From an uncultured Methanosarcinales archaeon (GTDB lineage Archaea > Nanobdellota > Nanobdellia > Woesearchaeales > CAZYIM01), in contig CAZYIM010000017.1 in NCBI GenBank assembly GCA_964647565.1, positions 1 through 54,738 on the forward strand: 54,738 nucleotides of DNA, written 5' to 3'. The position numbers and the translations under genes are program-made. Within the stretch, counting starts at the first letter, position 1, and every line of letters begins with the position of its first letter. The notes below the pieces were generated by a model. That model worked only from the letters and a program-made list of their open reading frames with translations, ran no database searches and had not been told where the DNA came from. Positions 1-54,728 of this stretch are shown piece by piece.

Positions 1-555
1 GTGATTCATTCTAAGAACTTCAATCATTTAGATAAGATATTGGAACTTGGCGAGCAGGTTGGAACTTCAGATATAACATTTATACCATTAGCAGTTTTAG
101 GTCCTATGCAGGATAGATTAGAGTTGTCTAACGATGAAAAACAGGTGTTGCAGCAGCTCTTGCCAAAATACATACAATTGGCTAAAAAACTGGGAATTGA
201 TACTAATCTTGAATCTCTTCAGGAAGGTACGCCCAATAGTTCTCCTAAAACTGCAGAGAAACTTGCTAGCAAGAGTAAAAAAAAAGAGTCACCTGGTTTT
301 GCCAATACAGCTTGTTTTGAACCATTTCTTCATCTGGTCATAAAAATGAATTATTCAATCAGCCCTTGTTGTATGCTTGATTCTGAGGAGTCTTTAAAGA
401 AAAATAGCCTGAAATCTATTTGGTTTGGTGATTATTTCACTAATTTAAGAACCAAACTTATAGAGGGAAAATTACCTGTAAGATGTAAGAACTGCTTGCA
501 CACTCAAGTAGTCCATAATCAGGATCTGAGGGATGCTTTAAATAAAGAGATTTAA
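1..555 (+). CDS. Radical SAM protein, C-terminal part with Twitch/SPASM-like domain (5' truncated by window edge)
   Basis: CFEPF-x-SPCC ... SLKSIWFGDYF ... CKNC tail matches the complete radical SAM paralogs in the window; the CxxxCxxC motif lies outside the window. Confidence 0.85.
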   Translation: MIHSKNFNHLDKILELGEQVGTSDITFIPLAVLGPMQDRLELSNDEKQVLQQLLPKYIQLAKKLGIDTNLESLQEGTPNSSPKTAEKLASKSKKKESPGFANTACFEPFLHLVIKMNYSISPCCMLDSEESLKKNSLKSIWFGDYFTNLRTKLIEGKLPVRCKNCLHTQVVHNQDLRDALNKEI

Positions 556-689
556 TGAAAATTCTACAAATATTTCTGTTTTTGTCGGTATATTTAAATA
601 GTTTTTTTCGTTCCTTACTAAAAATTCAGGAGGATATTTTTAATATATAACAACATTAGTTAATTTTACAATCCTAACAGGTGGTCAAC

Positions 690-1328
690 GTGAATGCACT
701 AGACAAATTTAACATATTTATTGACAAGACAAAAGATACGCTTGACAGCATCTTTGGCAACAAGCCAGAGGGTGCAGATTATTTCAATCCTCATGAAGAA
801 GTTGAATTCCAAGAAGGCAGAAAAATATCTTATAAGAACTTAGTGAGCTTAGTCGAAGAAAAGCAAGGTAAGCTAGAAATAGATTTAACAGCAATTCTCG
901 TCGGAACCCTAAAAGAAACAGATGGTGGCTACCAGGGATTTGGTTATGGCTGGACAGACCAGATGTACGGCCAAAACGATGGAATAACTCTTTACACATA
1001 TACTCATGTGGTTAAAAAGAAAGCCCATCCTACATATGGATACAAAGGTACAGGTTTTGCATGGGCAGAGATTAAAAAATGTAATTTTGGCGGCAATAAA
1101 TTTAGGTTAAAACAGACCAAAATCCATACCGAGAATACTAGTAACGAGCCAGGATTCCAAGCAATGGGTTATTCTAGTGTTGATGAAATGGAAGGAACCC
1201 TGGGCAAACAACTTAAGGTAACCTTTAAAAGAACGCTTATGGATAAACGTGATGAGCATTCAGCATTATACCAAGGATGTGGAGAAGGCTGGACAGACAA
1301 GGCTAGAGTTACTATAGAACTTGTATGA
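690..1328 (+). CDS. Hypothetical protein with four internal ~38-aa Gly/aromatic-rich repeats
   Basis: Long ORF (track start 681). AGGTGG at 679-684 favours GTG at 690. Motifs YQGFGYGWTD, YKGTGFAWAE, FQAMGYSSVD, YQGCGEGWTD. T-tract follows the stop. Confidence 0.8.
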   Translation: MNALDKFNIFIDKTKDTLDSIFGNKPEGADYFNPHEEVEFQEGRKISYKNLVSLVEEKQGKLEIDLTAILVGTLKETDGGYQGFGYGWTDQMYGQNDGITLYTYTHVVKKKAHPTYGYKGTGFAWAEIKKCNFGGNKFRLKQTKIHTENTSNEPGFQAMGYSSVDEMEGTLGKQLKVTFKRTLMDKRDEHSALYQGCGEGWTDKARVTIELV

Positions 1329-1341
1329 TTTTTTTCTTTTT
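1329..1341 (+). terminator. Oligo-T archaeal-type terminator
   Basis: TTTTTTTCTTTTT directly after the stop of 690..1328, at a convergent gene junction. Confidence 0.45.
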
Positions 1342-2687
1342 AATTTAGATATCCTAGAGATTTAAGCAGCTCAATACTTTTCTTGTTATCTTCCTTTAAT
1401 CGCTGATTTGATTCTATAAACTCATTGAGAAATCTCATCATGTTCTGGCTTATCTCTGGCATCACTCTAAACATATTATTTTGTTCTTTCTTACCCTCTA
1501 CAATATTATACAGCTTTGCTGTGTTATTATCAAACACTAATTTCCAATCTCCCTGCCTGACCAACCAGGAATCCTCCCCAGCAAGGACAAGTGTACGATC
1601 TTCCTGTAATTCCAATAGACTAACACCCTTGAGATTTGAAAAGTCATGGTCAATCTCTAATAGGTCAAGTACTGTTGGGAAAATGTCGATGTTTGAGACA
1701 GGTATTCTTGTTTTTGCATTATTTCCCAGCTTTTTTCCTCCAACGCTGATCATCAAAGGCACCTTAACTACTTCGTCTTTCAATGTAATGCAGTGGTTCC
1801 AAAGGTCTTCTTCACCTAGCAGTTCTCCATGGTCTGAAGTAAGGATAACTAGCGTATTTTTATCTAGGTTTAGCTCTTTAAGCTTAGTCAACACTCTTCC
1901 CATATGATAATCCATGTATTTGATCTCCCCCTCATACAAACCATGCATATATGTAGTCTCTTCTTCGCTAAGTTTGTAACCTACGTATTTCCAAGATTCA
2001 TCTGTGGGTGCTTTAATTTCATTTAAGTATGATCTAATATCTCCTTTGACAAAGGATATATTTTGATTGGTGGTTTTGAGTTCTTTCCTATGTTCTGCAG
2101 GAGGGTTGTATGGATCGTGCGGATCAAAATAGAATAGCCAAAGAAAAAACTTACCTTTTTTTATGATTTTTCTCGAGCCATTCAATGGATTTTTGACTGA
2201 CTTCTTCTGCATTTCTTGTACTCATTGAGTAGATGTCTTTTTGTTTTTCATTTTGGATATCATAGAAGTCAAAACCTATACTATAATATGGATTGGGATT
2301 CTCAGAATCACCAAATAAATGTTGGCTGATAATTGCAGCAGTATTATATCCACTCTGGTTGAGCACTTCTGCAAGCCTTGGTTTATCCTTAACATCTAAT
2401 CTACCGGTTAACATACGTACTACTGCAGGAACAGTGCACGGAGCTGAAGTATAGGCCTGCTCATAGATAGTTTTATCGTTGAAAAATTTATCAATATTGG
2501 GTGTTGTATTCTTAGGATAACCATAGATGCCCATATGGTCCTGCCTGAGTGTATCAACAGTAATTAGAATAACATTACAGTCTGGAGGGCAGTTAACTTC
2601 TTGAACAGCCGCTTTTTGGCATGCTGATAGGAATATAGTGCTAACTACCATGAATATTAGAAACAGGTTTCTTCTTAGGTGTGTCAT
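1340..2687 (-). pseudogene. Sulfatase-like hydrolase/transferase (alkaline phosphatase superfamily) split by a +1 frameshift; predicted lipoprotein
   Basis: ORF 2151..2687 has lipobox LSAC, LITVDTLRQDH and APCTVPAVVRMLTG. ORF 1340..2212 has FFLWLFYFDPHDPY, LTSDHGE and a C-terminal LKSLGY. Removing one base of the A7 run at 2156-2162 joins them (HKK-GKFFLW). Could be a sequencing error. Confidence 0.75.
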
Positions 2688-2724
2688 ATTGGATTTAAAT
2701 CAGCGTTCTCTTTAAGCAGGATGC

Positions 2725-4071
2725 TCATGTGATATAGCCAAGAGCCCTCAATCTTTCTTTCATCTCTTCTTCGTATGGTGAACCCTCGGATTCGGATTTT
2801 CCCTTTTTATTATCATCTAAGTCCTTTAGTTTCTCAACAGGTTCAACTATTTCTTTCAGAAGGTGCAATGGCGGAAGATTTTTCATGTCAGGATCCTTAG
2901 GGATACCTTGTATATGAAGAATTAGTGGTGCAATATCATAAACGCTAAGATTGTTAACTTCACCCAGATTTTTAAACAAGGGGCCTTTTGCCAGAAATAC
3001 TCCGTTTATCTTATGCTGAGCATGTCCTGGTGCTCCATCTTCAAAATGGTGTATAGTCAGTGGATGCTTGAATCCATGATCTGAGACAATAATTATGTTG
3101 GTGCCAGGATCTATTATCTCTTGCATCTTGCCTATGCTTTCATCTGTGTGCTTGTAAAATTCGGGGATTATATTTTCGAATATCTCTTTTTCTTCTTCTG
3201 TTGGAGGATTCCTGAATTTCATATTCTTGTATTCTGGCTGATAATATTTCCAATATTTATGCGAGACTGCATCGACACTGTCATAATACCCTATAAAAAG
3301 ATCTGGTTGGTCGATATTCTTGAGCAGGGATAAAGTGATTTGGATTCTGAGCTTCTCTTTTGAAAATTCAGCTCTCAAGAAAGATATTAATCTTTGATAT
3401 GTTTCTTCTTTTGAATCACTCTTAAAATCTTTATCAACATAATTTAATATATCTTTATCTGTAAATCGTATTATTTCTTGGTATATCTTGTCATAATCAT
3501 AATCTGCCTTATTTTGCTCTTTAAAACCATTTAGAAGCTCCGGAGGATAGGTCAGGTCTGGAACTTTTGCCTTATCCGTCAAGAAATATTCATAATAGCG
3601 TCTGCTTACAATATAACCATTAACTTTTTCAGCCGGCCAGCTTGCATAATACCCCATTACCCCTACAGACTTATTGTACTTAGACAGGATGTTCCATAAT
3701 GCAGGCACCTTTCTATGGTTTGAAGTTAATGTTTGGCCGTCTATTAAGAAATCAGTAATTCCATGCTCTTCGCCTGTTTTTCCAGTCGCAATAGATGTCC
3801 AAATAAGAGGAGTTTTCATAGGCTCAATAGATCTGAGATTGCCATAAGTCCCTTTATCCATTAATTTTTTTATATTCGGAAGTTCATTCTTTTCTATGAG
3901 AGGTTTGATGATATCCCACTCCATGCCGTCGATCCCTATTAAAATCACTTTGTGGTTTTTCTTGGGCGAGATGTTGGTCAGAACCAGAAAAACTAATAAT
4001 ATGAGGCAAATTATTCCGCTTAAAAAGGGTATTATGTTTAGGAATCTGTTTATCAATCTCTTTTTAGTCAT
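2725..4071 (-). CDS. Type I phosphodiesterase/nucleotide pyrophosphatase family protein (alkaline phosphatase superfamily), N-terminal membrane anchor
   Basis: IGIDGMEW, TPLIWTSIATG, DAVSHKYW, VSDHGF motifs; C-terminal ERLRALGY; N-terminal hydrophobic helix. Confidence 0.9.
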   Translation of the reverse strand: MTKKRLINRFLNIIPFLSGIICLILLVFLVLTNISPKKNHKVILIGIDGMEWDIIKPLIEKNELPNIKKLMDKGTYGNLRSIEPMKTPLIWTSIATGKTGEEHGITDFLIDGQTLTSNHRKVPALWNILSKYNKSVGVMGYYASWPAEKVNGYIVSRRYYEYFLTDKAKVPDLTYPPELLNGFKEQNKADYDYDKIYQEIIRFTDKDILNYVDKDFKSDSKEETYQRLISFLRAEFSKEKLRIQITLSLLKNIDQPDLFIGYYDSVDAVSHKYWKYYQPEYKNMKFRNPPTEEEKEIFENIIPEFYKHTDESIGKMQEIIDPGTNIIIVSDHGFKHPLTIHHFEDGAPGHAQHKINGVFLAKGPLFKNLGEVNNLSVYDIAPLILHIQGIPKDPDMKNLPPLHLLKEIVEPVEKLKDLDDNKKGKSESEGSPYEEEMKERLRALGYIT

Positions 4072-6011
4072 TTTAACAGGCTCTTTCCATCTATTAATTC
4101 GCTTTCTTTAAGTCCTAAAGCATCAAAAATTGTGGGTACTATGTCCATTTGGGAAGCAGATTTGGAATTTAGTTCTATATTTGCAAATAGAACTCCCGGA
4201 ACGAATTTAGGATCGACAAGATGGTCTCCAACCCATTTTTTATCATTGTCTGTTATCACCTCTTTTGTAAATCCTCCGATAGCATTTTGCCATGACATCC
4301 TAAAGCCAGGATTAAAACCTATTATTATGTCAGGGGCATCTTTCATACTTTCCCCATTATAAATTTCTTCTCTCTTGTATGCTTTGTTTACTACTTTTTT
4401 TCCTGTTTTAGGGTCTTTTAATTTTTCCAGCTCATCAATAATTTCATCAATGATCGCATCTCTATCTTTCACAATCCCTTTTCCTTCCCTGTCTTGAAGA
4501 TTGACATATATGCTGTTGAATCCTACTGAATAGGCTTTTGTTTTTGACCAGTCCACTTTTTCGAAAAGAGCTCCATCCTGGCCTTTTTTAAGTTCCTCAG
4601 TCAGAGTTATAAATCCATTTTCCACCAGCCATGTGTTGATACTGACGGATCTTTCAAATGATGTGAATCCGTGGTCAGAAATTATTAAGAGAAGGGTGTT
4701 CTCATCAAGCTTTTCAAGAACATTTCCGATGAATTCATCCTTTTCAATAAAGTATTCCTCTATCTCTTCACTGGTTTGGAACCTTTTAGAATTCTTGGTC
4801 AGGACCTTATCTTGCCACATGACATGTTGCAGCCTGTCAGAAGAATCGAAAACAAAAGCAAAGATACCTTTTTTCTTTTTATTGAACTCATTGAACTCAT
4901 CCCAAAACATCTTATTTCTTTCATTCTCAATATCTTTAATCTGTTTTATGAATGCATCCTTATCTAGGAGTTCATCAACATAGCCGTCTGTCTCTTCAGG
5001 CATTCCCAGGGTGTGATAAATGCCGATTGCCTTTGCTAGTTCTTCTGAATATTTGGGCGGATAAGAAATTTTCTTTATTGGATTTTCAGGATCTATCTGT
5101 ATGGCTGTGACATACATCTCAAAGGGATCTATGCTTATCAGATATGTCCTGAATATGCCGTATGCTTTGCTGAATGTTCCAGTCTTGAACTTAACTCTGA
5201 TCCATTCACTCCAGCTATCAAGATCGAGCGAATATTCTTTTTCATTGATGGTTAAAGTGGCTGAGTTCTGATCGTTGGAGATTGAAATCTGTAAAGGTTC
5301 TTTGATATCTACAACATTGCCAGATTTGCTTGTCTTAGGACCGAATATTTCTGTGTGAATGATCCCATCAATTTCTTCAACCTTAACAATCTTATTGCTG
5401 GCCTTTGAGGATTCCTTATCTTCTTCTGAAGTATAATAACTATACCCGCTCAAGAAACCCTTGATATCTGGCACCCCTAGTCCGGACAATAGATTACCTT
5501 CAATCCTTTCAGGAGGGAATGTGACAGGCCATCTGATGACACTTGTAGAAATTCCTTCTTTGGAGCTTATTCTCCAGAAGGGATCTGCTTTTACATATGA
5601 TTGGTAATCCGTACCTGCAATACCGCTTACAGTCTTTGTTAGACTCAATTCAGGCAAGTAGTTCTTAGGGTTCCTTCTTATGAAATCAAAGATGTTGTGC
5701 TTGCCAGGATTAGTACCTGTGGCAATGGAGGTCCATGCAACAGGACTATGCGGTGGATAGCTGGTATTAAGGTTGATAAAAGTGCCATTTTTTACTAGCT
5801 TGTTGAGATTTGGAAGTTTATTTTCCGCTATTAAGGATTTGGCCACTCTCGGATCAAAGCCATCTATACCTATGATTATGACCTTATTAAATCTGGATTT
5901 GGTTTCCATACTCCCCTCTTGAGCTGTAATAAAAATAATTAAAACTAATATTGCAACAACAAAACAAACCACGAATGTTTTTATTAATCTTTTCTTTTTA
6001 TTTTTTCCCAT
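4068..6011 (-). CDS. Type I phosphodiesterase/nucleotide pyrophosphatase family protein, N-terminal membrane anchor
   Basis: IGIDGFDP, SPVAWTSIATGTNPGKH, DRLQH, ISDHGF, GDH motifs; ATGA overlap with next gene. Confidence 0.9.
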   Translation of the reverse strand: MGKNKKKRLIKTFVVCFVVAILVLIIFITAQEGSMETKSRFNKVIIIGIDGFDPRVAKSLIAENKLPNLNKLVKNGTFINLNTSYPPHSPVAWTSIATGTNPGKHNIFDFIRRNPKNYLPELSLTKTVSGIAGTDYQSYVKADPFWRISSKEGISTSVIRWPVTFPPERIEGNLLSGLGVPDIKGFLSGYSYYTSEEDKESSKASNKIVKVEEIDGIIHTEIFGPKTSKSGNVVDIKEPLQISISNDQNSATLTINEKEYSLDLDSWSEWIRVKFKTGTFSKAYGIFRTYLISIDPFEMYVTAIQIDPENPIKKISYPPKYSEELAKAIGIYHTLGMPEETDGYVDELLDKDAFIKQIKDIENERNKMFWDEFNEFNKKKKGIFAFVFDSSDRLQHVMWQDKVLTKNSKRFQTSEEIEEYFIEKDEFIGNVLEKLDENTLLLIISDHGFTSFERSVSINTWLVENGFITLTEELKKGQDGALFEKVDWSKTKAYSVGFNSIYVNLQDREGKGIVKDRDAIIDEIIDELEKLKDPKTGKKVVNKAYKREEIYNGESMKDAPDIIIGFNPGFRMSWQNAIGGFTKEVITDNDKKWVGDHLVDPKFVPGVLFANIELNSKSASQMDIVPTIFDALGLKESELIDGKSLLK

Positions 6012-6208
6012 AATCTCAATACCGCCTTTTTAATTGGCTGAAAGAAATATCTTAAGAAAAATGCGCCTATAGCTGCCAATACTGCTACAATGAATGGCCA
6101 GATTGATCCAACGATCATACCTCCTGTACCCGGATCGATATACGCAAGAACAATTTTCATTGTCATAAGACCAAGCCCGATATGCAGCCAGATTTTTTTA
6201 TTTAGCAT
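5984..6208 (-). CDS. Small membrane protein with AYIDPGTG motif
   Basis: ATG at 6208 overlaps the upstream stop (6202-6204); AYIDPGTGG followed by a hydrophobic helix and a basic tail; 74 aa. Confidence 0.7.
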   Translation of the reverse strand: MLNKKIWLHIGLGLMTMKIVLAYIDPGTGGMIVGSIWPFIVAVLAAIGAFFLRYFFQPIKKAVLRLWEKIKRKD

Positions 6209-7302
6209 TTTTTGTTTAGACAATCTCGTATTTCGTTGTTGATGGAAAAACTCCAGGGATTGCATCTAGAGCAACTCTTTGGGAGTACGTCTTCTATAAT
6301 TGTACCCCTTATCCTATTAAAATATTTACTATTCCATACTTTTTCAAGACTCTTTGCACTTCGTATATCAACACCTTTTGTTGTGAAAAGGAAGCAAGGT
6401 TCTATATGCCCATCAGAGAAAATAGACATGTTAAACCAGGGATAGAAACAGAGAATATTATTGAAGGCCTGATTTTTTTTCTTATCATTATTTATATTCT
6501 TTTTTGTTTCCTTATCCATGATATTTGCCTTTTCAAACAGATTCTGCTGAATAAATTCATCTAGATTTGTTCCAATATTGTTTTTCCTGGCATAAGCCAA
6601 GGCTCTTTTTGCAAGTTTTGAGAATATATTCCAGTTTTCCTTGTTCATCTTGAGGGGCTCCATCTCTTCGGACCAGATGTTAAGGGCATTAACTAATACA
6701 TCATCTACATTGAGTTGCTTTGCAAGTTTGAACATCTCACAAATTTTATCGTAGTTTCTATTACAAATCACCATATGAACCGCTAGAATTGGATTTTTTT
6801 GGCCTTTTTCTGCTTTCAAATCTGAAAAGAGCTTGGCGTTCCTAATTACCTTGTTAAAGCACTTCACTTTCCTAATGTGTTCATGAGTCTTTGCATCAGG
6901 TCCATCAAGACTGATGGTTACCTTGTCCCATTTCAGTTTGACAAGGGTTTCAATGAACTGCTTGTCAAATAAAGTACCATTAGTTATGATTTCTCCGATC
7001 ATCCCCTGTTTTTTTATTTCTGTCATGACAGAGAAAGCGAGATTCCTGTCCAATAATGGCTCGCCTCCGCCGCATATATGCCATTCTTTAACACCCATTT
7101 TCTTGCTCTGTCTGATGATATCCAGCCATTCATCCTTGTTAAGTTCACTGTCTTTTTTAAAGGCATGCTGTTTGGCGAATTCTCTAGTCGGACAGAAAAA
7201 ACACTGTAGATTGCAGAAATTTGTAAGATGTGCTTGAATCTGGGTCGGACCCTGCGGTTGACCTAGGGACCACAACTTAATTCTCTTAACCCGTTCCTCC
7301 AT
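6202..7302 (-). CDS. Radical SAM protein with Twitch/SPASM-like C-terminal domain
   Basis: CNLQCFFC, GGGEP, TNG, SLDG; tail CFYPW-x-EPC...CSRC. Confidence 0.93.
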   Translation of the reverse strand: MEERVKRIKLWSLGQPQGPTQIQAHLTNFCNLQCFFCPTREFAKQHAFKKDSELNKDEWLDIIRQSKKMGVKEWHICGGGEPLLDRNLAFSVMTEIKKQGMIGEIITNGTLFDKQFIETLVKLKWDKVTISLDGPDAKTHEHIRKVKCFNKVIRNAKLFSDLKAEKGQKNPILAVHMVICNRNYDKICEMFKLAKQLNVDDVLVNALNIWSEEMEPLKMNKENWNIFSKLAKRALAYARKNNIGTNLDEFIQQNLFEKANIMDKETKKNINNDKKKNQAFNNILCFYPWFNMSIFSDGHIEPCFLFTTKGVDIRSAKSLEKVWNSKYFNRIRGTIIEDVLPKSCSRCNPWSFSINNEIRDCLNKKC

Positions 7303-19009: not shown

Positions 19010-19010
19010 T

Positions 19011-21882: not shown

Positions 21883-21926
21883 TCTCAAGAAGTTTTTTTT
21901 TAATCAGGTTCTCTTTTCTTTTCATT

Positions 21927-25789: not shown

Positions 25790-25790
25790 T

Positions 25791-27377: not shown

Positions 27378-27674
27378 GATTAACCACTCAAACACACTTG
27401 ATAAAATATCTCCTTAATTCAAACCTATAAAGAGACACCCCCTTACGAATTAATATCTGTCAATGACTTAAGTATTTTTTGGTTTATTTAAAGCTAAATA
27501 AGGATGTTTTTTTGAATATTTCTATTCTGGAACCCTTGATAAATATATAACTACCTTTTATTTACAAAAAATTTATATATGTTGTGTACTGATTTATATT
27601 CGGTTAGATATTGAATTTAAAAAAAGAGTGTTTAATTTAATCTGATTCAACTATTCATATAAATGGTGTTAGTA

Positions 27675-28439: not shown

Positions 28440-28490
28440 AATCATTATTTTTTTTAATCATTTTTTCTTTATTTATTGAATTCTCAGAGC

Positions 28491-28502
28491 AAAATTTATA
28501 AA
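28491..28502 (+). promoter_or_regulatory. TATA box for the 28533..34525 operon
   Basis: AAAATTTATAAA after a T-rich terminator-like tract; GAGGGG RBS at 28524-28529. Confidence 0.45.
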
Positions 28503-28532
28503 ATAGTGTTTATTCTGAAATTCGAGGGGATT

Positions 28533-45717: not shown

Positions 45718-45718
45718 G

Positions 45719-46447: not shown

Positions 46448-46563
46448 ATACTGCATGGGCATTAATCATATCACATTCGCCATATTACATTATATCTATA
46501 GTTGGCATCTGGTTAATGGTAAGATTAAGAAAAAAGATGAGAAATATGGCAGCAGAGCTTTGA
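46444..46563 (+). CDS. Small single-pass membrane peptide (39 aa), not in ORF track
   Basis: ATGA overlap with the GT2 stop; MNTAWALIISHSPYYIISIVGIWLMVRLRKKMRNMAAEL. Confidence 0.55.
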   Translation: MNTAWALIISHSPYYIISIVGIWLMVRLRKKMRNMAAEL

Positions 46564-46579
46564 AGGAGGATGGAAATAT

Positions 46580-46732
46580 ATGGTATTATCAACAACACAG
46601 GCAATTATTATCACGCAAATTCCAATTGCAGTCGCAATACTGATTCTGGCTTACGAAGTCTTTAAAACCAAGAAAGAGTTCTTAAACTTGCTCGACAAAC
46701 TAGTTGAAGTTAATAAGAAGAAAAAAGAATAA
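46580..46732 (+). CDS. Small single-pass membrane peptide (50 aa), not in ORF track
   Basis: AGGAGG at 46564-46569; MVLSTTQAIIITQIPIAVAILILAYEVFKTKKEFLNLLDKLVEVNKKKKE; fills the gap to the convergent gene. Confidence 0.65.
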   Translation: MVLSTTQAIIITQIPIAVAILILAYEVFKTKKEFLNLLDKLVEVNKKKKE

Positions 46733-46746
46733 GGCGGGTTTAATAT

Positions 46747-47676
46747 TTAATATCTTTGAAGGTTCTTTAAATTTGCAAATGGGTGCTTGAATAATCTATT
46801 GTATTCCAGATAACATAAGGTTGAACAACAGCATTTTCCGCCTGTTGTTTTTTTATCTTGTGACTGTTTGAATCTGCAGGGGCTTATTTTCCCATTAGGA
46901 TAAAGAGTGCAGAAATGTTTACCTGCAATACAGTTAAATTCTTTTATGCCTTGGGCATATATTTTCAGGACTTTATTGCTTATCATCAGAAGAGCTGGAT
47001 TTTTTTTCTTGAATCTCTTCAACATAAGGATCGCATGTTTAAATTCATTGGTTTTTGGGACCAGTTCATCTACAGTATTATATTGATCCTTGAAAATTGG
47101 CAGAAAAGCAATTGGTGTATTTGTTCTCACTGCTAAACTAAGCATCTCCTTTAATCCAAATAAATCTTGTTCAAGGAGAAAATTAGATAGTAACGTATTA
47201 ATATAAACATTCAGTTTATTCTTTTTCATCAATTGGAGATTTTTAATAACATTATCATATGTGTTCTTGCCTCTGATTTTTTCATGGATCTGTTTAGGAC
47301 CGTCAATCGACAAACCTATTAAGTCAATATCTTTCAGCCATGCAACATTTTTCTGGATCAGAAGGCCGTTGGTGCTCATTGTCATATGTAATCCAAGACT
47401 TTTTGCACAAGCAACCACTTCTTTAATATCTGGATGCAATAATGGTTCCCCCCCACCAAAATACCATGAAAGGCATCCTTTGTCTGAGAATTTTTTCATA
47501 AGTTGTTTTATTTCCTCTTTTCTAAGCTCTTTTCCCTTTTGTTTATATAGGCCACAGGATATACATTTCAAATTACATCTATAAGTAATCAAATGCTCTA
47601 CTTTTATCATTGGTTTTTTGTTAAGCAGATAGAGAAATCCTGTCTTTATCAGCTTAAGAAAGCTTGGACGGCTCAT
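46747..47676 (-). CDS. Radical SAM protein, short Cys-rich C-terminus
   Basis: CNLKCISC, GGGEP, TNG, SIDG; CIAGKHFC-x-SPC...CCCSTLC. Confidence 0.92.
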   Translation of the reverse strand: MSRPSFLKLIKTGFLYLLNKKPMIKVEHLITYRCNLKCISCGLYKQKGKELRKEEIKQLMKKFSDKGCLSWYFGGGEPLLHPDIKEVVACAKSLGLHMTMSTNGLLIQKNVAWLKDIDLIGLSIDGPKQIHEKIRGKNTYDNVIKNLQLMKKNKLNVYINTLLSNFLLEQDLFGLKEMLSLAVRTNTPIAFLPIFKDQYNTVDELVPKTNEFKHAILMLKRFKKKNPALLMISNKVLKIYAQGIKEFNCIAGKHFCTLYPNGKISPCRFKQSQDKKTTGGKCCCSTLCYLEYNRLFKHPFANLKNLQRY

Positions 47677-48656
47677 TTTACATTAAAAAGGGTTCTGATC
47701 ATTGATCTTAGATTCAGATCAAATATGAAATTCAGCTCTGTCAATGAATCACTGACACATCTGGTGCACTTTACCTCAGGTAAGCTAAGGAAGGCTGACT
47801 TAAAATTATTTTCCAACTTTACCATGCCTGACTTAGTTTCTTCCATACAACCACAATGGAACATTGTTCTATCACAATTTAATCTACAGAAGAGTTTGCC
47901 TGCAAAACATTTTATCTTTTTGTTGTTTATGTAGTCTGATCTGAAATAATCCAGGTTCTTTTTTGAATTTGAGATGTATTTCCTGTATTTCTTATTTTTT
48001 AGAAGCTGGCCGAAAAATTGTGAAAATTCTTCTTTAGATGGGATATTGTGTGTTATATTTTCTTCCCTACCAACAACATTAATAAGAGGTGAAAAATCAA
48101 TAGGGGCATTGTATTTCTTTGCAGTTTTAAGAAGAAATTCTATCTGATTTAAGTTCATCTTTGATACTGTGGTGTTGAATCCCATGTTTATCTTATTTTT
48201 TTTACAGAACTCTGCAGCTTCAATAGTTTTCTTAAATGCGCCTTTACCGCGTAATGTATCTTGAATTTCCTTAACTCCATCCAGACTAAGTTTTATTTTT
48301 CCAATCCCTTTAAGACTATCTTTTTTTTGTATTAAAAAGGTTCCATTAGTCTTTACAACCACATAGATATTCTTCTTGATGATATATTGCAGGATCTGTT
48401 CAAAGTCTTCTCTTGCCCAGGGTTCTCCTCCATTAATTGAGATGACTGCAGTTCCTAATCTGTTAAGTTCATCAATGATTTTTAATATTGTGGCCTTATT
48501 CATCTCTTTTTCCATGAATTTATATGACTTACAATAAGGACATTTTAAGTTGCACCTATCTGTTATCTTTATATCCACATAAAGAGGTGTCTTAATGCCA
48601 AATAGATGATAAGCAGTCAGTGCTTTTATTATTTTAATTCTGGTGGTCAGTCTCAT
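47673..48656 (-). CDS. Radical SAM protein, short Cys-rich C-terminus
   Basis: CNLKCPYC, GGEP, TNG, SLDG; CFAGKLFC...HCGC...CTRC. Confidence 0.92.
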   Translation of the reverse strand: MRLTTRIKIIKALTAYHLFGIKTPLYVDIKITDRCNLKCPYCKSYKFMEKEMNKATILKIIDELNRLGTAVISINGGEPWAREDFEQILQYIIKKNIYVVVKTNGTFLIQKKDSLKGIGKIKLSLDGVKEIQDTLRGKGAFKKTIEAAEFCKKNKINMGFNTTVSKMNLNQIEFLLKTAKKYNAPIDFSPLINVVGREENITHNIPSKEEFSQFFGQLLKNKKYRKYISNSKKNLDYFRSDYINNKKIKCFAGKLFCRLNCDRTMFHCGCMEETKSGMVKLENNFKSAFLSLPEVKCTRCVSDSLTELNFIFDLNLRSMIRTLFNVK

Positions 48657-48667: not shown

Positions 48668-50095
48668 TTATTTCTTGAAATATTTTCGCGTATTTAAAGC
48701 TAGTGTTAGTCCATCCTTAAGGCCAAACTCCTCGTATTTAAGGGAAAAAAGAAAATAACTAAGCTTGAAAATTTCGTGATAAATCCTTCCAAAAGGGAGT
48801 CTTATCAGCATCTTAACCAATGGGATGATGATTGGCATACTTACACAAAGGCTGAAAAATTTATGGAGATTCATTATTTCTTTTTTGTTCTTAAGTTTTA
48901 CCCAGTTTGATATGAAAAAACCTCTTTCAAACGCATTGATGTCAAAATGGGATTCGATAAGATTATTTTCAATTACATACTTAGCGATCTCTGTTTTTGG
49001 ATATGGCTGGAGTATATGTGCGTGTGCAAAGTCTGTATTTATCCGTATATTGAACTTAATAGTATTAAAGACATCTTCCAGCGTCTCATTTGGGCTTCCT
49101 ATGAGATTGTAGGTCTTGAGCTTGATCTTTTGTTGTTTTATTGCTTTGGCCGCTGTAACAATTTCCTGGTTTGATAGCTGTTTTTTTAGGATTTGGTTGC
49201 GTATATGTTCGTTAGCTGACTCGATTCCTATCTTAGCAGTAAAACATCCCGCCATTTTCAATGCTTTTGCTATTTCACTATTCATCTTGTCAGCCCTCAG
49301 GGCACATGAAAAAGGAATCTTTATCTCTTTGGAATATATTTTGCAGAATCTGATTATCCAATCTTTATCATGGTTCAAGGCATCGTCTTCAAATATTATC
49401 CTTTTCATGTAGGGATCTTGTTTTCTTAGTTGCTTGATCTCATTAATAACATTCTCAACAGAGCGTTTCCGTACATATTTACCTCTTCCAGAATACATCT
49501 TTTTTAGACCCTTATTAAAACAGAATGCGCAATTATAGGGGCATCCCCTGCCAGTTACAATAACCTTAAGTCTTTGTTTTCTAAAAAAGTCATATTTGTT
49601 ATATAGCTGTCTGTCTGGGAATGGCAGCCGGTCGAGATCGTCTATCAAGGATCTTAAGGCATTCTTGAAAACCTTCTCTTTTTTTCCAATCCTTTTTTTG
49701 ATCCACAGGTTTTGAATATTTGTAATGTCTTTTCTTTTTTGAAGAGTATCTGAAAGATCAAGCAATGCATAATCAGATTCCCCTCTTGAGATTATGTCAA
49801 TTCCTTTTTCATTTAGGATTTCTGGAAAGAAGGTTGGATGTGGCCCGCCAATGAGGGTTATGACAGGAATCTTTTTCTTAATTTTTCTTGCTGTCTTAAT
49901 AACCCAATCCTGTCCGCCTGTTGTGCAGGAGAATGCTATGATGTCTGGATTGATACTGCAGGTCTTTAAAATTAAATCTTTTTCGAGACACTCTACGAGA
50001 ATTTTACATTCATGGCCCTTTTCTTTTAGAATTGCTGACAGATACATAAAGCCCATCTTGACAAACATGTCCTGCTGGATGAATAAGATTTTCAT
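48668..50095 (-). CDS. Cobalamin-binding radical SAM protein
   Basis: MGFMYLSA, IGGPHPT, RGCPYNCAFC, GIES, LIGSPNET. Confidence 0.93.
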   Translation of the reverse strand: MKILFIQQDMFVKMGFMYLSAILKEKGHECKILVECLEKDLILKTCSINPDIIAFSCTTGGQDWVIKTARKIKKKIPVITLIGGPHPTFFPEILNEKGIDIISRGESDYALLDLSDTLQKRKDITNIQNLWIKKRIGKKEKVFKNALRSLIDDLDRLPFPDRQLYNKYDFFRKQRLKVIVTGRGCPYNCAFCFNKGLKKMYSGRGKYVRKRSVENVINEIKQLRKQDPYMKRIIFEDDALNHDKDWIIRFCKIYSKEIKIPFSCALRADKMNSEIAKALKMAGCFTAKIGIESANEHIRNQILKKQLSNQEIVTAAKAIKQQKIKLKTYNLIGSPNETLEDVFNTIKFNIRINTDFAHAHILQPYPKTEIAKYVIENNLIESHFDINAFERGFFISNWVKLKNKKEIMNLHKFFSLCVSMPIIIPLVKMLIRLPFGRIYHEIFKLSYFLFSLKYEEFGLKDGLTLALNTRKYFKK

Positions 50096-50103
50096 TTTGT
50101 TTC

Positions 50104-51078
50104 TTAAATTACTTTTTCATCTAAGAGAAAATTATAAAGCAATTGAGCAAATAACCTGTGTCCTTCTACATTCGGATGTCCATCAACTCCCGGTTCAGGG
50201 AAGTTATGAATAGCAAGATCTTCACATCTATTACTAATGAGTTCATTTAGGTCTTGTGAAAAATCAGAATAGACGAAATCTTCTTTGAGGACAGTTACTT
50301 GATTATAAAATATGGGGGTTCTGCATTTATCACCGTGTAGATCTGGCAACAAGAAAACATAAAACTGGATCTCTTTTTGAACAGCTGAATTATACATTTC
50401 AAAAAGCATATCTTCACTTTTATCCTTGTTTTCTATGATATAATCTATATCTGCATCTCCTCTTTTTATTTTTTTATTAAAGATTTGTAAGTTGATATAT
50501 TTCCCAATTTTAAATCTTGTTAAGAATTCATTAAATGGGATGTTGAGTAGATCAGGGATTTCTGCATTGTAATATGTGATGATATAATTGTCCTTTGTTT
50601 TCCTTATTTTGTATTGATCAAAGTCATTAGTCATTAATCCAAAAATGATGATATCAGGATCATATTGGATAACTGTCTTGTATAGTTTATTTACTTGCTG
50701 GAGATTATATCCATTGATGCCCGCGTTTATAACCCTGAACTTATTGCCTTTATTTTTTGTATTAAGTAATCCTTCTAGGAAATGGGCATAGGTTTCATTT
50801 CTCTTAACTCCTAGTCCATAAGTGAACGAATCTCCAATAACCACTATATTGATTTCTTCATTTGATATTTTATCCATATTTTGTTGAATTTTTTTTTGGG
50901 AATGTACATATATGGGGATTCTTTCATCAAATATGATGTCATTCCTATCAATTATTGATTTGTCAGAACTATTTGGAGCGGGTGCTATAATCTCGAATAA
51001 AAATAATGAAAATAAAATAATGAGTATAGGCATACTGATTTTTAACCAAAATAATTTTTTTTTCGTTTTTTTCTTCAT
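50104..51078 (-). CDS. SGNH/GDSL hydrolase family protein, membrane anchored
   Basis: N-terminal TM; VIGDSFTYG, NAGINGYN, TND, DGHPN; paralog of 10248..11297. Confidence 0.88.
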   Translation of the reverse strand: MKKKTKKKLFWLKISMPILIILFSLFLFEIIAPAPNSSDKSIIDRNDIIFDERIPIYVHSQKKIQQNMDKISNEEINIVVIGDSFTYGLGVKRNETYAHFLEGLLNTKNKGNKFRVINAGINGYNLQQVNKLYKTVIQYDPDIIIFGLMTNDFDQYKIRKTKDNYIITYYNAEIPDLLNIPFNEFLTRFKIGKYINLQIFNKKIKRGDADIDYIIENKDKSEDMLFEMYNSAVQKEIQFYVFLLPDLHGDKCRTPIFYNQVTVLKEDFVYSDFSQDLNELISNRCEDLAIHNFPEPGVDGHPNVEGHRLFAQLLYNFLLDEKVI

Positions 51079-51102
51079 CTTTATTTTGGATCGAATTGAT
51101 TG

Positions 51103-52491
51103 TTAGAATCTAAATGTGTTTAATTTTTTCCATATAGGTTTCTTCTTTTTTGGAGGTTTTTTCCCGCTCTTAAGATAGTAGAGTTGTTCTTTCAATTCAA
51201 GGTTCTCCCGGAAGAGATTGATTAAAGTTGTGTGGACTTTCTCATACTGGGCATATTCTTTCAGGCTTTTTCTTACTAGGCACATGTCTCCTATTACATT
51301 AGGCCTGCACATATGACAGTAATCGGGCAAATTTTTCTCTAGGAACATGGCTCTGGTCTTTTCGAGATTAGGACCAAACCATATATCCTTAAGGCTTTTG
51401 TCCTTAATATTATCTTGACTGTCTTTGCACTCTCCACAGTGTACAGCAACTCCTTCTGCAGTGATCATGAGATAGAACCAAGGATAATAACAGGGTATGT
51501 CTGAGATATCTTCCAGGGATTTTTCTTTTAAGGCAGGTTCCTTGACATTGAAGACCTTGAATTTCTTGGTCTGTATAGTCTTTTGCCGCTTGACATTTTT
51601 CTTGATCACTTCCTTGATATCACTTGTCTTTTCCACGAGTTCTTTGTTGAACTCCTTTTTTTCATCTTCCCCTTCCATACAGCTGATAAATGTGGCGATG
51701 TTGAGTTTTCTTGCTAAGCTCTCAGTCTTTCTTATGATACCTGGCAACTGATGGAGCTCTTTTGAAGTAAGTTTGATATTTTGTCCAAGTTCGCTATGTA
51801 TTATCATGGGCTCGATAAAGATAGCGTCGGCACCTAATTGGCTTGCCATTTTTATCATATCTGGTAAGGTCTTATAGTTCAATGAATTCAAAACCATATT
51901 GATCGTGATTGCAGGTCTATCATCGCCATATTTATCCCGGAATTTCCTGAGCTGACTAACCATTCTAGTGGCTTTATCAAAAGTGCCAGGTATTCTTCTT
52001 ATTTTGTCATGAATATCTGCTGTAGGGGCATCAATGCTGACGCCAATTGAATCCCAGCCAATAAGTACTAATGTTTTCAGATCATTGTCTGTCCAAAGGG
52101 TTCCATTGGTTGTAAGTTCGCCGAATATGTTCTGCTGTTTTATCGTCTTTAACAGTCTCATGGTTGATTTAGGTGTACACATAGGTTCGCCAATACCCGC
52201 AATATTCCATGCTTTGACTTTCATCTTGCCAGACTCCCTTGCTATCTCGAGCCATCTCTTGGCAGATACTTCAACCAATTTAGAATGCTCATTGATGTCG
52301 TGTTTTGCCTGCCTTCTGATACAATGGATACAGTTAAGATTACATCTCCTATGAAGCTCTGCATCGATTCTTATGGGTGGGAGTCTTTCACCATTTAGCC
52401 ATCGTTGCATCCTTAGAGAGTAGTCTCTAATCCAGAGCTCTTTTTTAAAGAGCATTACCTTTGATATAGGGTTGGGTTTTTCAAGCTCCAT
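51103..52491 (-). CDS. Radical SAM protein with Twitch/SPASM-like domain and coiled-coil/basic tail
   Basis: CNLNCIHC, GEP, TNG; CYYPW-x-VHC...CHMC; C-terminal extension. Confidence 0.92.
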   Translation of the reverse strand: MELEKPNPISKVMLFKKELWIRDYSLRMQRWLNGERLPPIRIDAELHRRCNLNCIHCIRRQAKHDINEHSKLVEVSAKRWLEIARESGKMKVKAWNIAGIGEPMCTPKSTMRLLKTIKQQNIFGELTTNGTLWTDNDLKTLVLIGWDSIGVSIDAPTADIHDKIRRIPGTFDKATRMVSQLRKFRDKYGDDRPAITINMVLNSLNYKTLPDMIKMASQLGADAIFIEPMIIHSELGQNIKLTSKELHQLPGIIRKTESLARKLNIATFISCMEGEDEKKEFNKELVEKTSDIKEVIKKNVKRQKTIQTKKFKVFNVKEPALKEKSLEDISDIPCYYPWFYLMITAEGVAVHCGECKDSQDNIKDKSLKDIWFGPNLEKTRAMFLEKNLPDYCHMCRPNVIGDMCLVRKSLKEYAQYEKVHTTLINLFRENLELKEQLYYLKSGKKPPKKKKPIWKKLNTFRF

Positions 52492-53659
52492 TTTCTTTCT
52501 GTCTTTTTAAAAAATCTAAATAGATCTTCATATCCTGCTTTAGTTCAGCTGTCATATCCAGTAGGCCGCATGCTGAGCATTTTTCAGTTGGCTTGTTCTC
52601 AATTATCATTTTCCTAATCTTTTTAAAAAAGGATCCATACCAGATCTGCTCAAAACCCTGCCGAATGTTATTCTCTGGTTTTCCATCACCAGCAGCACAG
52701 CAATAGTTGACATTACCCAGCGGATCAATGAACATCGAATAAAATGGTTCGTAACATAAAGGACTTAGGAACTTTTCCTGGTTTTTTTCAATCGTTGATT
52801 CTTCTTCCTCGTTCTCCTCTTTTTCATTTCTTTGTTCTGTTTCTTCTATCATGCTGACATTGAGATACATATCTGATTTTGAAGCTATTTTTTGGGCTTC
52901 TTTAATTTGTTCGAGCATTATTTTCTCCTGATTTTTATTCAGTTTGAGATGCTGCATTCTGTCACGGGTTTCTTCATACTCCCTCATAGGATGTAGAGCC
53001 AGTTCACTAACTCCATTTTTTATTGCAAACTTTACAATATCAATTATTTGATCAAAGTTCTTATTGCTTAAGACAGTGTTCATCTGTACTAAGGGCTTAT
53101 CTGTCTTGTTCTTCTTTTTCAAATCCTGCAGCAGTTTGAGGTGTTTTGAAGCATCTTGGAATGCTCCTTTGGTTCCCCGCACATAATTATGTGTTTTGGC
53201 TTTACAAGAATCAATACTGACAAGAATACGGTCAAGTCTGCATTTTACAAGCATCATTAACGTATTCTTATCTGGTAAAGTAAGATTGGTGATGATTTCA
53301 CAGATGTTAGTCTTATCATGATTTTTTATCATCCTAATCATGTTTAAGGTAAGCTCTTTTCGGACAAAGGGTTCTCCTCCTCCGAGTATATAGAATTCCT
53401 TTGCGCCCATATCTAATGCATCTCTGACTAGTAAACACCAGTCTATATCTTTAAGCTCTTCCTCTTCCTTGAATCTTCCAACCTCTCTAGCATATGAATT
53501 TGGACAGCAGTAACATTTTAAATTGCACCTATTAGTGGGCACCATAACTATCTTGAATGGCGGTTGAGGGTTATTATCCAGCCAATTATAGATTCTTAAT
53601 ATCTTTTCTGAATGATTTTCATTGTTGTAGCGGAATAAACTTTTTGGAGGTCTAATCAT
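52481..53659 (-). CDS. Radical SAM protein with Twitch/SPASM-like domain
   Basis: CNLKCYCC, GGGEP; CYEPF-x-NYCC...CSAC; ATG 53659 (track start 53665 is TTG). Confidence 0.93.
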   Translation of the reverse strand: MIRPPKSLFRYNNENHSEKILRIYNWLDNNPQPPFKIVMVPTNRCNLKCYCCPNSYAREVGRFKEEEELKDIDWCLLVRDALDMGAKEFYILGGGEPFVRKELTLNMIRMIKNHDKTNICEIITNLTLPDKNTLMMLVKCRLDRILVSIDSCKAKTHNYVRGTKGAFQDASKHLKLLQDLKKKNKTDKPLVQMNTVLSNKNFDQIIDIVKFAIKNGVSELALHPMREYEETRDRMQHLKLNKNQEKIMLEQIKEAQKIASKSDMYLNVSMIEETEQRNEKEENEEEESTIEKNQEKFLSPLCYEPFYSMFIDPLGNVNYCCAAGDGKPENNIRQGFEQIWYGSFFKKIRKMIIENKPTEKCSACGLLDMTAELKQDMKIYLDFLKRQKENGA

Positions 53660-54728
53660 TTTCAAGAGCCTCCCTAAGTTCTCTATTTTCGTCTATCATC
53701 AAAGTACAGCATCTCTGGCAGGCCTCTGGCAGGTCCCAATTCTTCATTCTTTTTCTTAAATCCTTCATTTTTTTACTGTTCCACATGTATTCAAGGGTCT
53801 TATCTTTAACATTGCCGAGCTCTAATGATGGGTGGTTGGCTGCTGCTGCACAAGGAGTGACGTTACCCTCACTACTGACACAGAGTCCAATCCACGGATA
53901 ATAACATGCAATCTTACCTTTGTTTTTAGGTTCTTGCTTTTCAGCTAATATGATATCCTTGGCTTGGTCAGATCTTGAATGAGAATAATCTTTCTTTATG
54001 CTATCAATATTTGTATGAACTTCTAGTTTTTTTGCGAGCTCTTCAGCATTATCAAGTACAATCATTACTTTCTTATTATTGGTGATCTGAAGAACTTTAG
54101 ATTCCTTTGTGAAGGGGATTAAGGGTAATATATTGAGCTTACCAATCCCTTTTTGTTTACAGATTTCCACTATTTCTGGGAGTTCTCTGAAATTAATTTT
54201 GCACATTACAAAATTGAGCTCAACATCTGGCAACCTTTTGCCCTTAGCGTGCTTAATATTGTTAATTTCTGTCATCGCATTGAAGGTCTTATCAAATGAA
54301 CCTTTAATACCTCTGAGCTTGTCATGAGTTTGTGCTTTTGCTCCATCTAGGCTAAAAGCCAGATTGTTCCATTCCATCTCTACAAGTTCATTTAATTCAG
54401 CAGTGTTAAGTAGAGTTCCATTAGTGACCATACTGGTGCCCATCCGATGTTTCTTTGATTTCTTGAATATTTTCATAGCATCTCTACGCATGAACGGTTC
54501 TCCTCCGAGCACTCCAAAATTTATGGTGTGCATCTTAGCTGCAGAGTCAAGCAAATCAAGCATTTTCTCGGTAGGAACCTCTTTTTTTGCACTCTCTTTA
54601 GATTTTTGTGGAAACTGGCAGAATACACATTTGAGGTTGCATCTGTTAGTCAGAAATACATCTAGCTTAAAAGGACCTTTGTTGTTATTTAGGTTTTCTC
54701 TGACTCTATCTATGAAATCTTTTCTCAT
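53652..54728 (-). CDS. Radical SAM protein with Twitch/SPASM-like domain
   Basis: CNLKCVFC, GGEP, TNG, SLDG; CYYPW-x-TPC...CQRCC. Confidence 0.93.
   Translation of the reverse strand: MRKDFIDRVRENLNNNKGPFKLDVFLTNRCNLKCVFCQFPQKSKESAKKEVPTEKMLDLLDSAAKMHTINFGVLGGEPFMRRDAMKIFKKSKKHRMGTSMVTNGTLLNTAELNELVEMEWNNLAFSLDGAKAQTHDKLRGIKGSFDKTFNAMTEINNIKHAKGKRLPDVELNFVMCKINFRELPEIVEICKQKGIGKLNILPLIPFTKESKVLQITNNKKVMIVLDNAEELAKKLEVHTNIDSIKKDYSHSRSDQAKDIILAEKQEPKNKGKIACYYPWIGLCVSSEGNVTPCAAAANHPSLELGNVKDKTLEYMWNSKKMKDLRKRMKNWDLPEACQRCCTLMIDENRELREALEND

Follow-up and report, generated by a model that had tools for sequence, protein, structure and literature searches.

What would an archaeon do with eleven related radical S-adenosylmethionine (SAM) enzymes encoded on one contig, and on what would they act? 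The stretch of DNA analysed here (the window) is the whole of contig CAZYIM010000017.1 (C17; 54,738 nucleotides), part of an archaeal metagenome-assembled genome (MAG) of 2.68 Mb in 86 contigs, 86.9% complete. A first-pass annotation, made from the sequence alone, had read its eleven open reading frames (ORFs) with a four-Cys, Twitch-like tail as a locally expanded family of sugar dehydrogenases or epimerases. The enzymes are, on balance, probably involved in the radical tailoring of lipid-linked surface glycans; that they catalyse dehydrogenation or epimerisation in particular is a tentative and rather doubtful proposal. The carbohydrate reading draws on gene neighbourhood and on fusions to GT4 glycosyltransferases, not on the type of tail. 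Each member has a full (β/α)6-type core and a C-terminal Twitch domain, and the family is uncharacterised; substrate class, cluster role and reaction type are what we infer below.

All eleven ORFs are present where they had been placed, and the tail that unites them, C-x17-C followed by C-x2/3-C, was borne out by Pfam, alignment and a motif census. The ORF listed from 28533 begins there at an internal ATG of 28476-29609(+). Ten of the eleven are full length (358-462 aa). They are mutually homologous radical SAM proteins with pairwise identities of 25-36% in the alignment; Pfam Radical_SAM (PF04055) is found in all ten full-length members (55-85 bits, cut-off 29.5) and SPASM (PF13186) lies above its cut-off in all eleven (27-54 bits vs 21.5). 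A family profile scores the full-length members at 369-465 bits and the truncated one at 197 bits. Judged from profiles and alignment, the eleven are plainly homologues, and a chance pattern is ruled out. Two further radical SAM genes of the window (46747-47676 and 47673-48656) have the same four Cys, no Pfam SPASM match and a position in the tree outside the family clade.

Is the tail of the Twitch type or a full SPASM domain? According to the parts of PMC6231123 that treat these domains, SPASM is a seven-Cys motif (CX9-15GX4C-gap-CX2CX5CX3C-gap-C) holding two clusters, Twitch is a truncated form of SPASM that binds one, and in the Twitch domain of BtrN four Cys fully ligate a [4Fe-4S] cluster. 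Apart from the start, the sole invariant columns of the window alignment are four tail Cys (C285, C303, C344 and C347 in the numbering of ORF 6202); the CxxxCxxC motif of the core is nearly invariant there, and its C30, C34 and C37 are invariant in two further alignments (A2 and A3). The motif census covered 27 full-length members of the genome and 218 external members. C-x12-G-x4-C (that is, C-x17-C) is present in 27 of 27 genome members and in 213 of the external ones, 209 of them at spacing 17. A C-x2/3-C pair follows 30-50 residues downstream in 26 of 27 genome members and, at whatever distance, in 212 of 218 external members. The CX2CX5CX3C block of SPASM was found in none of the 27 and in one of the 218, and the tails contain 4-6 Cys (genome) or 4-8 Cys (external) in total. 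The match to PF13186 arises in spite of the missing SPASM motif because the Pfam model covers the first half that both domains share. In the AlphaFold2 model of ORF 38829 (pLDDT 95.3, pTM 0.92) a strand (296-298) and helices (314-331) lie between the two Cys pairs. From the census and this model, the tail is assigned to the four-Cys Twitch type and not to the seven-Cys SPASM type, as the first-pass annotation had held, and its Cys are expected to ligate one auxiliary [4Fe-4S] cluster in full.

The remaining sequence features of the annotation also stood up. The N-terminal (R/K)(I/L)xxW...P helix, claimed for most members, keeps its Trp in eight of ten full-length proteins, and the charged segment before the tail appears in the alignment as a K/E-rich variable linker, together with a KSLKxIW stretch. 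The noted lack of a RiPP recognition element (RRE; RiPP, a peptide made by the ribosome and modified after translation) was likewise confirmed. An RRE is about 80-100 residues long, and the start of CxxxCxxC lies at residue 29-51 in each of the 27 genome members (at 30-39 in 180 of 216 external ones), so that there is no room for one; a Pfam scan of the window members gave no PqqD-type match at E<=0.01. On this evidence the window members are devoid of an RRE. The linker is also the site of a different gene layout on another contig of the genome, C13, where two diverged tandem family members (C13:46441-47615 and C13:47659-48842, both in locus L019) are each split into a core ORF of 265-266 aa and a Twitch-tail ORF of 126-128 aa that meet at the linker with an ATGA overlap. 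Since diverged copies have the same layout, this suggests a genuine two-polypeptide form, not a sequencing error.

Does a Twitch tail imply sugar chemistry, as had been proposed? It does not. MoaA, which acts on GTP, and SkfB, which acts on a peptide, are Twitch enzymes too, so that the tail alone is no predictor; in the portions of PMC6231123 concerned, MoaA, BtrN and SkfB neither co-cluster nor share a function, and subfamily similarity clusters follow neither the Twitch/SPASM type nor function, which makes fold and function prediction hard. The carbohydrate role put forward in the first-pass annotation survives as the best reading by neighbourhood and fusions, while the tail falls away as its basis.

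What, then, surrounds the family? Besides its members, the window encodes ten B12-class radical SAM enzymes, three GT-C glycosyltransferases and the other genes listed in Table 1. Two further contigs of the genome, C12 and C13, hold sister islands with four GT2, two GT4 and five PMT_2 genes, a Wzx-type Polysacc_synt protein and ABC-2 with ABC_tran, as well as sulfatases, arylsulfotransferases and GH113. Among six other genomes of the phylum that were inspected, GT2 and GT4 genes lie beside the family clusters in five, and individual clusters include ABC-2 permeases, Wzt with Wzt_C, PMT_2 and giant B12 radical SAM fusions. Loci from named MAGs have glycan-type or otherwise sugar- or carbohydrate-related neighbours in 11 of 16 cases: PMT_2, GT2, GT4, Polysacc_synt, carbamoyltransferase, DegT aminotransferase, GFO/IDH/MocA, FkbM methyltransferase and GDSL hydrolases, with one locus (L047) counted on its GH5 cellulase, GHMP kinase and FGE-sulfatase domains. 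Array takes up almost the whole of the remaining five. In one relative, G151, PMT_2, ABC-2, ABC_tran and GT2 precede the array upstream and two GT4 genes follow it downstream, with ordinary archaeal housekeeping genes further out; inside the array are two DUF2079 membrane proteins, two aldo-keto reductases (AKR), two B12 genes and one GDSL gene. A domain scan for fusions took the 150 best representatives and, from these, the 25 proteins that are longest or have several domains: two are fused to GT4, one to Phosphodiest and four to TPR, and most of the remainder string several radical SAM units together in tandem, in one case with a B12 domain included.

How would such enzymes fit into a glycan pathway? 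They would be cytoplasmic and act before export, each paralogue abstracting a hydrogen atom from one particular sugar position on a polyprenyl-phosphate-linked sugar or glycan; lipid-linked substrates are suggested by the recurrent grouping of GT-C, Twitch and B12 genes. The fully ligated auxiliary cluster could take the second electron and leave a keto sugar, electron acceptor being the role proposed for this cluster in BtrN and anSME in the relevant part of PMC6231123. The keto sugar might then be reduced, with net epimerisation, possibly by co-encoded AKR/ferredoxin proteins, or else undergo C-methylation by the B12 enzymes or some other processing, and the product would be exported and transferred by a GT-C enzyme. 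AKR/ferredoxin proteins do recur in the arrays (in the window and in loci L028, L031, L035 and L045), and the nearest solved relatives of the AKR proteins include L-galactose dehydrogenases and the AKR chain of DON 3-epimerase. In the window, family gene 28476-29609 leads an operon with three AKR-type genes; its second-best match (L028:14475-15524, 36% identity) also stands beside AKR genes.

A comparable logic is known from pathways that use flavin or NAD enzymes, not radical SAM. In mycobacteria, DprE1/DprE2 epimerise a polyprenyl-phosphate-bound sugar by oxidation and reduction, after which Emb/Aft GT-C enzymes transfer it outside the membrane; in the ArnC/ArnD/ArnT pathway a polyprenyl-phosphate-bound sugar is deacylated and then transferred by a GT-C enzyme outside the membrane. 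The window has DprE/Arn-like elements in its pair of GT2 and deacetylase genes, its flippase-like protein and its three GT-C genes. The radical SAM family may run parallel to these systems by analogy; no homology is claimed. Carried furthest, the comparison would give an oxygen-independent radical assembly line in which about 25 ordered Twitch paralogues, with B12 and AKR/ferredoxin proteins, rewrite the lipid-linked sugars of a surface polymer, pairs of Twitch dehydrogenase and AKR serve as anaerobic counterparts of DprE1/DprE2 that feed GT-C enzymes, and the outcome is a hypermodified glycan of a hitherto unseen kind, possibly central to host attachment. Such a scheme is speculative and improbable as it stands.

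Several observations weigh against surface glycans as the substrate. We know of no precedent for two dozen distinct radical steps on one glycan, and the sixth of the inspected genomes (G100) has a single related copy among housekeeping genes. The B12 enzymes of the window point elsewhere as well: some score best to the RiPP C-methyltransferase model TIGR03975 (152 bits vs 282), and partial matches to HpnJ, HpnR and a ladderane-type B12 protein indicate lipid chemistry. In a profile search of the PDB, SkfB (1e-27) and PqqE (1e-25) come ahead of BtrN (6e-21), which is followed by BlsE, SuiB, MoaA, CteB and anSME; Foldseek places SkfB and SuiB first. By VIA-align the two top rows are the sugar-acting BlsE (Z 25.2) and DesII (Z 24.7), with the peptide-acting SkfB (24.6) and SuiB (24.2) within 1 Z of them, PqqE at 22.0 and anSME at 21.3; BtrN, at Z 18.0, has rank 36, and GDGT-MAS, at 18.3, again points to lipids. 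The tied top rows mix sugar-acting with peptide-acting enzymes, so that the modelled fold leaves the substrate unsettled. ESM Atlas matches are to generic 'radical SAM/SPASM' clusters only. Full ligation of the auxiliary cluster is also described, in the same part of PMC6231123, for the peptide-acting SuiB and PqqE and is thus no argument for dehydrogenation in particular.

Among curated families, no NCBIfam model has its cut-off reached by the family members of the window. Scores are 71-129 bits (cut-off 380) for the tungsten-cofactor maturase TIGR04317, 59-116 (381) for PqqE (TIGR02109) and 48-88 (170) for NF033640 (N_Twi_rSAM), which expects an N-terminal twitch; in these proteins profile positions 2-87 are matched by the twitch-like part, which is C-terminal. 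By equivalog score the members do not belong to the heme or heme d1 synthases AhbC, AhbD and NirJ either, with 56-114 bits vs 500 for AhbD (TIGR04545) and 44-101 vs 650 for AhbC.

Might the substrate nevertheless be a peptide or protein? The proposal would be that a ribosomal peptide, or a surface protein such as an S-layer protein or pilin, is modified without an RRE and that the glycosyltransferases decorate the same protein. Peptide maturases (SkfB, PqqE, SuiB and CteB) are the best sequence and Foldseek matches, and SkfB, the Twitch sactisynthase (PDB 6EFN), shares the Twitch domain with the family. SkfB, SuiB and CteB carry an N-terminal RRE in the account given in PMC6231123, whereas the family has only about 30 residues before CxxxCxxC. 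SuiB and PqqE are SPASM peptide maturases with two auxiliary clusters, and the family has the pattern for one. PqqE works with a PqqD partner; no PqqD was found among the window members, as said above. The PMT_2 description in Pfam includes protein O-mannosyltransferases, TPR fusions make up four of the 25 scanned proteins, and the asparagine-synthase (AsnB) homologues partly match a lasso cyclase model (109 bits vs 525), all of which suits a protein substrate. Set against this are the GT4 fusions, neighbours typical of glycan pathways (Wzt_C, Wzx, carbamoyltransferase and DegT) and the absence of a leader peptidase or peptide exporter among window genes and scanned array neighbours, with a weak Peptidase_S24 match on C12 (25.8 bits) as the sole exception. 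Nor was a conserved small ORF found (the two window ORFs of no family are described below). Intergenic gaps of the window are all <=300 nt; the two largest (27395-27663 and 46447-46747) were searched and hold short, featureless ORFs with no plausible precursor among them, and the remaining gaps are below 200 nt. An RRE-dependent RiPP maturase is thus not indicated by RRE, PqqD or a precursor in those two gaps, and we regard a peptide or protein substrate as unlikely. Two window ORFs belong to no family: 681-1328(+), with an internal G-x-G-W-T-D repeat, and 27663-28439(+), with an N-terminal membrane anchor. Considered as conserved substrates, both were rejected, having no homologue in related loci or elsewhere in the genome.

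Membrane lipids are a further candidate, with remodelling of isoprenoid chains or glycolipid head groups by enzymes of the Tes/Gms/GrsA/B/HpnJ/HpnR kind; this small archaeon may scavenge its lipids. The B12-type neighbours score best to HpnJ, at about 200-223 bits (the pair 7394-8791/8805-10205 has it as best partial NCBIfam match, at about 200 bits vs a cut-off of 578), and these matches, like those to HpnR and the ladderane-type protein, remain far under the curated cut-offs; Tes (NF045702) reaches only about 50 bits, in two of eleven members. A link to lipids could also be seen in the Z score of GDGT-MAS, in the flippase-like MprF-type protein and GDSL hydrolases of the window, in UbiA prenyltransferases near two arrays, in an IspG gene inside the C13 array, and in the mention of DPANN lineages in the literature on archaeal lipid radical SAM enzymes. 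The family's neighbours, however, are mostly glycosyltransferases and polysaccharide exporters, not lipid synthases, and the GT4 fusions exist here too; lipid remodelling has, in our view, a small chance of being correct. The IspG/GcpE gene is complete and lies mid-array (C13:43241-44287, L019:3241-4287; 470 bits vs 345 in NCBIfam, 477 in Pfam); as an enzyme of the methylerythritol phosphate (MEP) pathway it is unexpected in an archaeal radical SAM array.

Closest to the original proposal would be soluble dehydrogenases or epimerases like BtrN or NeoN, acting on free nucleoside diphosphate (NDP)-sugars or cyclitols in a secondary-metabolite pathway of the aminoglycoside kind. BtrN (2-deoxy-scyllo-inosamine dehydrogenase of butirosin biosynthesis; PDB 4M7T) likewise joins a radical SAM core to a four-Cys Twitch domain; with its CX9-15GX4C spacing the family tail aligns to BtrN, the best-scoring stretch of the profile pairing it with BtrN residues 161-243, and 227 of 246 residues superpose (root-mean-square deviation 3.0 Å), at an identity of only 16%. 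BtrN has about 250 aa against 358-462 here, the family adding the N-terminal helix and the K/E-rich linker, and it belongs to an aminoglycoside cluster, whereas here 8 to about 29 paralogues are arrayed together within glycan islands. By sequence profile, Foldseek and VIA-align it is not the closest enzyme, and its curated model is absent from the best 25 NCBIfam families per protein. The top structural rows are enzymes of nucleotide-linked sugars, BlsE (cytosylglucuronate decarboxylase, PDB 7VOB; 302 residues) and DesII (thymidine diphosphate (TDP)-sugar deaminase/dehydrogenase, PDB 8HZV; 334 residues), both at 15-16% identity and tied with the peptide maturases; the BlsE model TIGR04466 gives 43-68 bits vs 400 and is among the best 25 families for two of eleven members. 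DegT aminotransferase and GFO/IDH/MocA genes in one related locus would also fit. An epimerase of the NeoN or EpeE type, with a thiol as hydrogen donor, would be expected to have a fifth Cys, and the family alignment has no fifth invariant Cys. The absence of any NCBIfam assignment, together with export genes and GT-C transferases that point to a surface polymer, makes this proposal very unlikely.

If lipid-linked surface glycans are the substrate, how old is the set of enzymes that tailors them? By a hidden Markov model (HMM) built from the ten full-length members (ORFs above 150 bits) the genome has 30 family ORFs, ten each on C12, C13 and C17, among 62 radical-SAM-type ORFs found overall; an HMM for the B12 class finds 34 above the same threshold. 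A quick maximum-likelihood tree with 101 rows unites the ten full-length window members with 14 members from C12 and C13 and 43 external proteins in a single clade (98% SH-aLRT) apart from the genome's other radical SAM proteins, including the window genes at 46747 and 47673; the external set is biased, having been gathered by a search with a single member. The concern that the members might be polyphyletic is thereby answered as far as the genome's own proteins go; within the clade its paralogues interleave with foreign sequences. The ORFs 19011, 36050 and 23557 group with C12_9837 (95% SH-aLRT). For ten of the eleven window members, ORF 24668 being the exception, a protein from a locus in a different MAG exceeds every paralogue of the same genome in identity: ORF 51103 is 56.6% identical to L041:6596-7999 vs 38.5% within its own genome, ORF 52481 53.3% to L041:2774-3949 vs 32.3%, and 38829-39914 reaches 49-50% identity with proteins of Aenigmatarchaeota MAGs. 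L041 even keeps part of the gene order of the window, with homologues of 53652 and 52481 adjacent and that of 51103 after two inserted genes. Recent duplication or gene conversion between window copies was considered and rejected, the best repeat being 81 nt at 78% identity. Taken together, cross-MAG identity, the interleaved tree and the lack of long near-identical DNA mark the family as old, with about 25-30 paralogue lineages; with some 30 copies on three contigs, 'locally expanded' does not describe it. It is kept as gene arrays in Aenigmatarchaeota-like DPANN archaea, within surface-glycan islands that comprise GT2 and GT4 enzymes, Wzm/Wzt or Wzx exporters, GT-C transferases (PMT_2, DUF2079), B12-dependent radical SAM enzymes, deacetylases and SGNH hydrolases.

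Relatives were retrieved with an alignment of the 38829 orthogroup. Those with names are mostly Aenigmatarchaeota MAGs, along with two loci from Woesearchaeota, one from Nanoarchaeota and one bacterial (Hydrogenedentes). Of 150 other genomes sampled from the phylum, 17 match at E<=1e-40; five related MAGs have 24-26 matches each, and at E<=1e-30 an exhaustive profile search gave 6,622 cluster representatives. G151 has its copies in one array of about 29 genes that spans 11.5 to 53.2 kb. The assemblies of G151, G152 and G154 (seen through L028, L035 and L031) measure about 0.6-0.7 Mb (rounded; completeness not given), and their 24-26 copies, in a single array, take up about 4-5% of the assembled bases. 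In the genome studied here, the three island contigs have a G+C content of 34.1-36.4%, the other 27 of the 30 largest contigs lying mostly at 37-41%; two of these, at 35.9% and 36.6%, overlap the island range. The truncated family member at 1-555(+) has its complementary N-terminal half at C12:1-556(-) (profile positions 6-165), and the two ends are in register. Because the end fragments are complementary, in-register halves of one family member, C12 and C17 probably abut, which would make a single island about 120 kb long; a sequence overlap between the two contig ends was not found.

To our knowledge, carbohydrate radical SAM chemistry is known from a handful of antibiotic pathways, with one or two enzymes each. 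Here each genome draws two to three dozen conserved paralogues from a single uncharacterised Twitch family, in arrays that lie in surface-glycan islands of archaea otherwise equipped with very few biosynthetic genes. Twitch radical SAM enzymes as such are known, but not in glycan islands as conserved gene sets two to three dozen strong; full-text searches, whose coverage leaves out subscription journals, found no description of such arrays. If the substrates are sugars, the family would amount to an extensive and unexploited collection of enzymes that tailor glycans by regio- and stereo-specific C-H activation, and the DPANN surfaces that mediate episymbiotic life would carry a still-uncharted chemistry.

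Table 1. Genes of the window in contig order, with the evidence for each assignment.
Position	Strand	Feature	Evidence
1-555	+	Family member, C-terminal half only, gene cut by contig end	SPASM 29 bits; profile positions 177-364
1340-2212, 2151-2687	-	Sulfatase in two overlapping ORFs (alkaline-phosphatase superfamily)	Pfam
2725-4071, 4068-6011	-	Two type I phosphodiesterases (alkaline-phosphatase superfamily)	Pfam
6202-7302	-	Twitch radical SAM family member	Radical_SAM 84.9 bits, SPASM 33.4 bits, four invariant tail Cys
7394-8791 (+), 8805-10205 (-)	+, -	Two B12-binding radical SAM genes	B12-binding and Radical_SAM
10248-11297	-	GDSL/SGNH hydrolase	Pfam
11470-13059	+	GT-C glycosyltransferase (PMT_2)	Pfam
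13071-14567	-	B12-binding radical SAM gene	Pfam, NCBIfam
14735-16636	+	Asparagine-synthase-type amidotransferase	Asn_synthase 128 bits; NCBIfam matches all below cut-off
16653-18053	+	B12-binding radical SAM gene	Pfam, NCBIfam
18050-19009	-	Flippase-like membrane protein (LPG_synthase_TM)	Pfam 123 bits; TIGR00374 104.6 vs 43.2
19011-20144	-	Twitch radical SAM family member, adjoins GT-C gene	Pfam, alignment
20131-21888	-	GT-C glycosyltransferase (PMT_2 and PMT)	Pfam
21927-23567	-	Long divergent B12-type radical SAM gene, paired with Twitch gene	Radical_SAM 48 bits, weak B12-binding
23557-24675	-	Twitch radical SAM family member, 11-nt overlap with B12-type gene 21927-23567	Pfam, alignment
24668-25819	-	Twitch radical SAM family member, overlaps both flanking genes	Pfam, alignment
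25791-27395	-	Long B12-type radical SAM gene, paired with Twitch gene	Pfam, NCBIfam
28476-29609	+	Twitch radical SAM family member, probable ATG start 28533	Pfam, alignment
29606-32407	+	AKR-TPR gene	Pfam
32404-33462	+	AKR-like gene with Fer4	Pfam
33467-34525	+	AKR gene with Fer4	Pfam
34539-36053	-	Long B12-type radical SAM gene, paired with Twitch gene	Pfam
36050-37180	-	Twitch radical SAM family member with a long B12-type radical SAM gene on either side, each overlap 4 nt	Pfam, alignment
37177-38727	-	Long B12-type radical SAM gene, paired with Twitch gene	Pfam
38829-39914	-	Twitch radical SAM family member, structure modelled	Pfam, alignment, AlphaFold2
39930-41681	-	GT-C glycosyltransferase (PMT_2)	Pfam
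41653-43023	-	B12-class radical SAM gene, HpnJ-like	201 bits
43059-44954	-	Asparagine-synthase-type amidotransferase	Pfam, NCBIfam
45019-45717	+	Polysaccharide deacetylase	Pfam
45695-46447	+	GT2 like polyprenyl-phosphate-sugar synthases	Pfam; partial AglJ and PpgS matches
46747-47676, 47673-48656	-	Two distant radical SAM relatives, short four-Cys tail	Radical_SAM only
48668-50095	-	B12-binding radical SAM gene	Pfam
50104-51078	-	GDSL/SGNH hydrolase	Pfam
51103-52491	-	Twitch radical SAM family member, extended by about 70 aa at the C-terminus	Pfam, alignment
52481-53665	-	Twitch radical SAM family member	Pfam, alignment
53652-54728	-	Twitch radical SAM family member	Pfam, alignment

A few features of individual genes deserve mention. 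The AKR-TPR gene 29606-32407 is translationally coupled to the Twitch gene 28476-29609 and carries a long TPR tail of four repeats, each about 440 nt long and sharing 61-81% identity with the reference copy. In the sulfatase, the N-terminal part is encoded by 2151-2687 and the C-terminal part by 1340-2212, through a frameshift or a real split. The formylglycine signature of sulfatases is C-x-P-x-R, and the Cys-containing motif of 1340-2687 misfits it. Three arrays of other MAGs share a conserved protein, rich in Cys and about 190 aa long, that has a membrane anchor at its N-terminus and matches no Pfam family (L035:2838-3410, L045:2893-3465 and L031:2604-3173), which is absent from the window. 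Relatives also encode giant polypeptides of several radical SAM units (L026:6727-13023, L021:14729-19174, P0113 and P0108); in one, of 2098 aa, Radical_SAM stretches occur four times and B12-binding ones three times, and in another, of 1927 aa, a B12 unit is followed by Twitch-family units.

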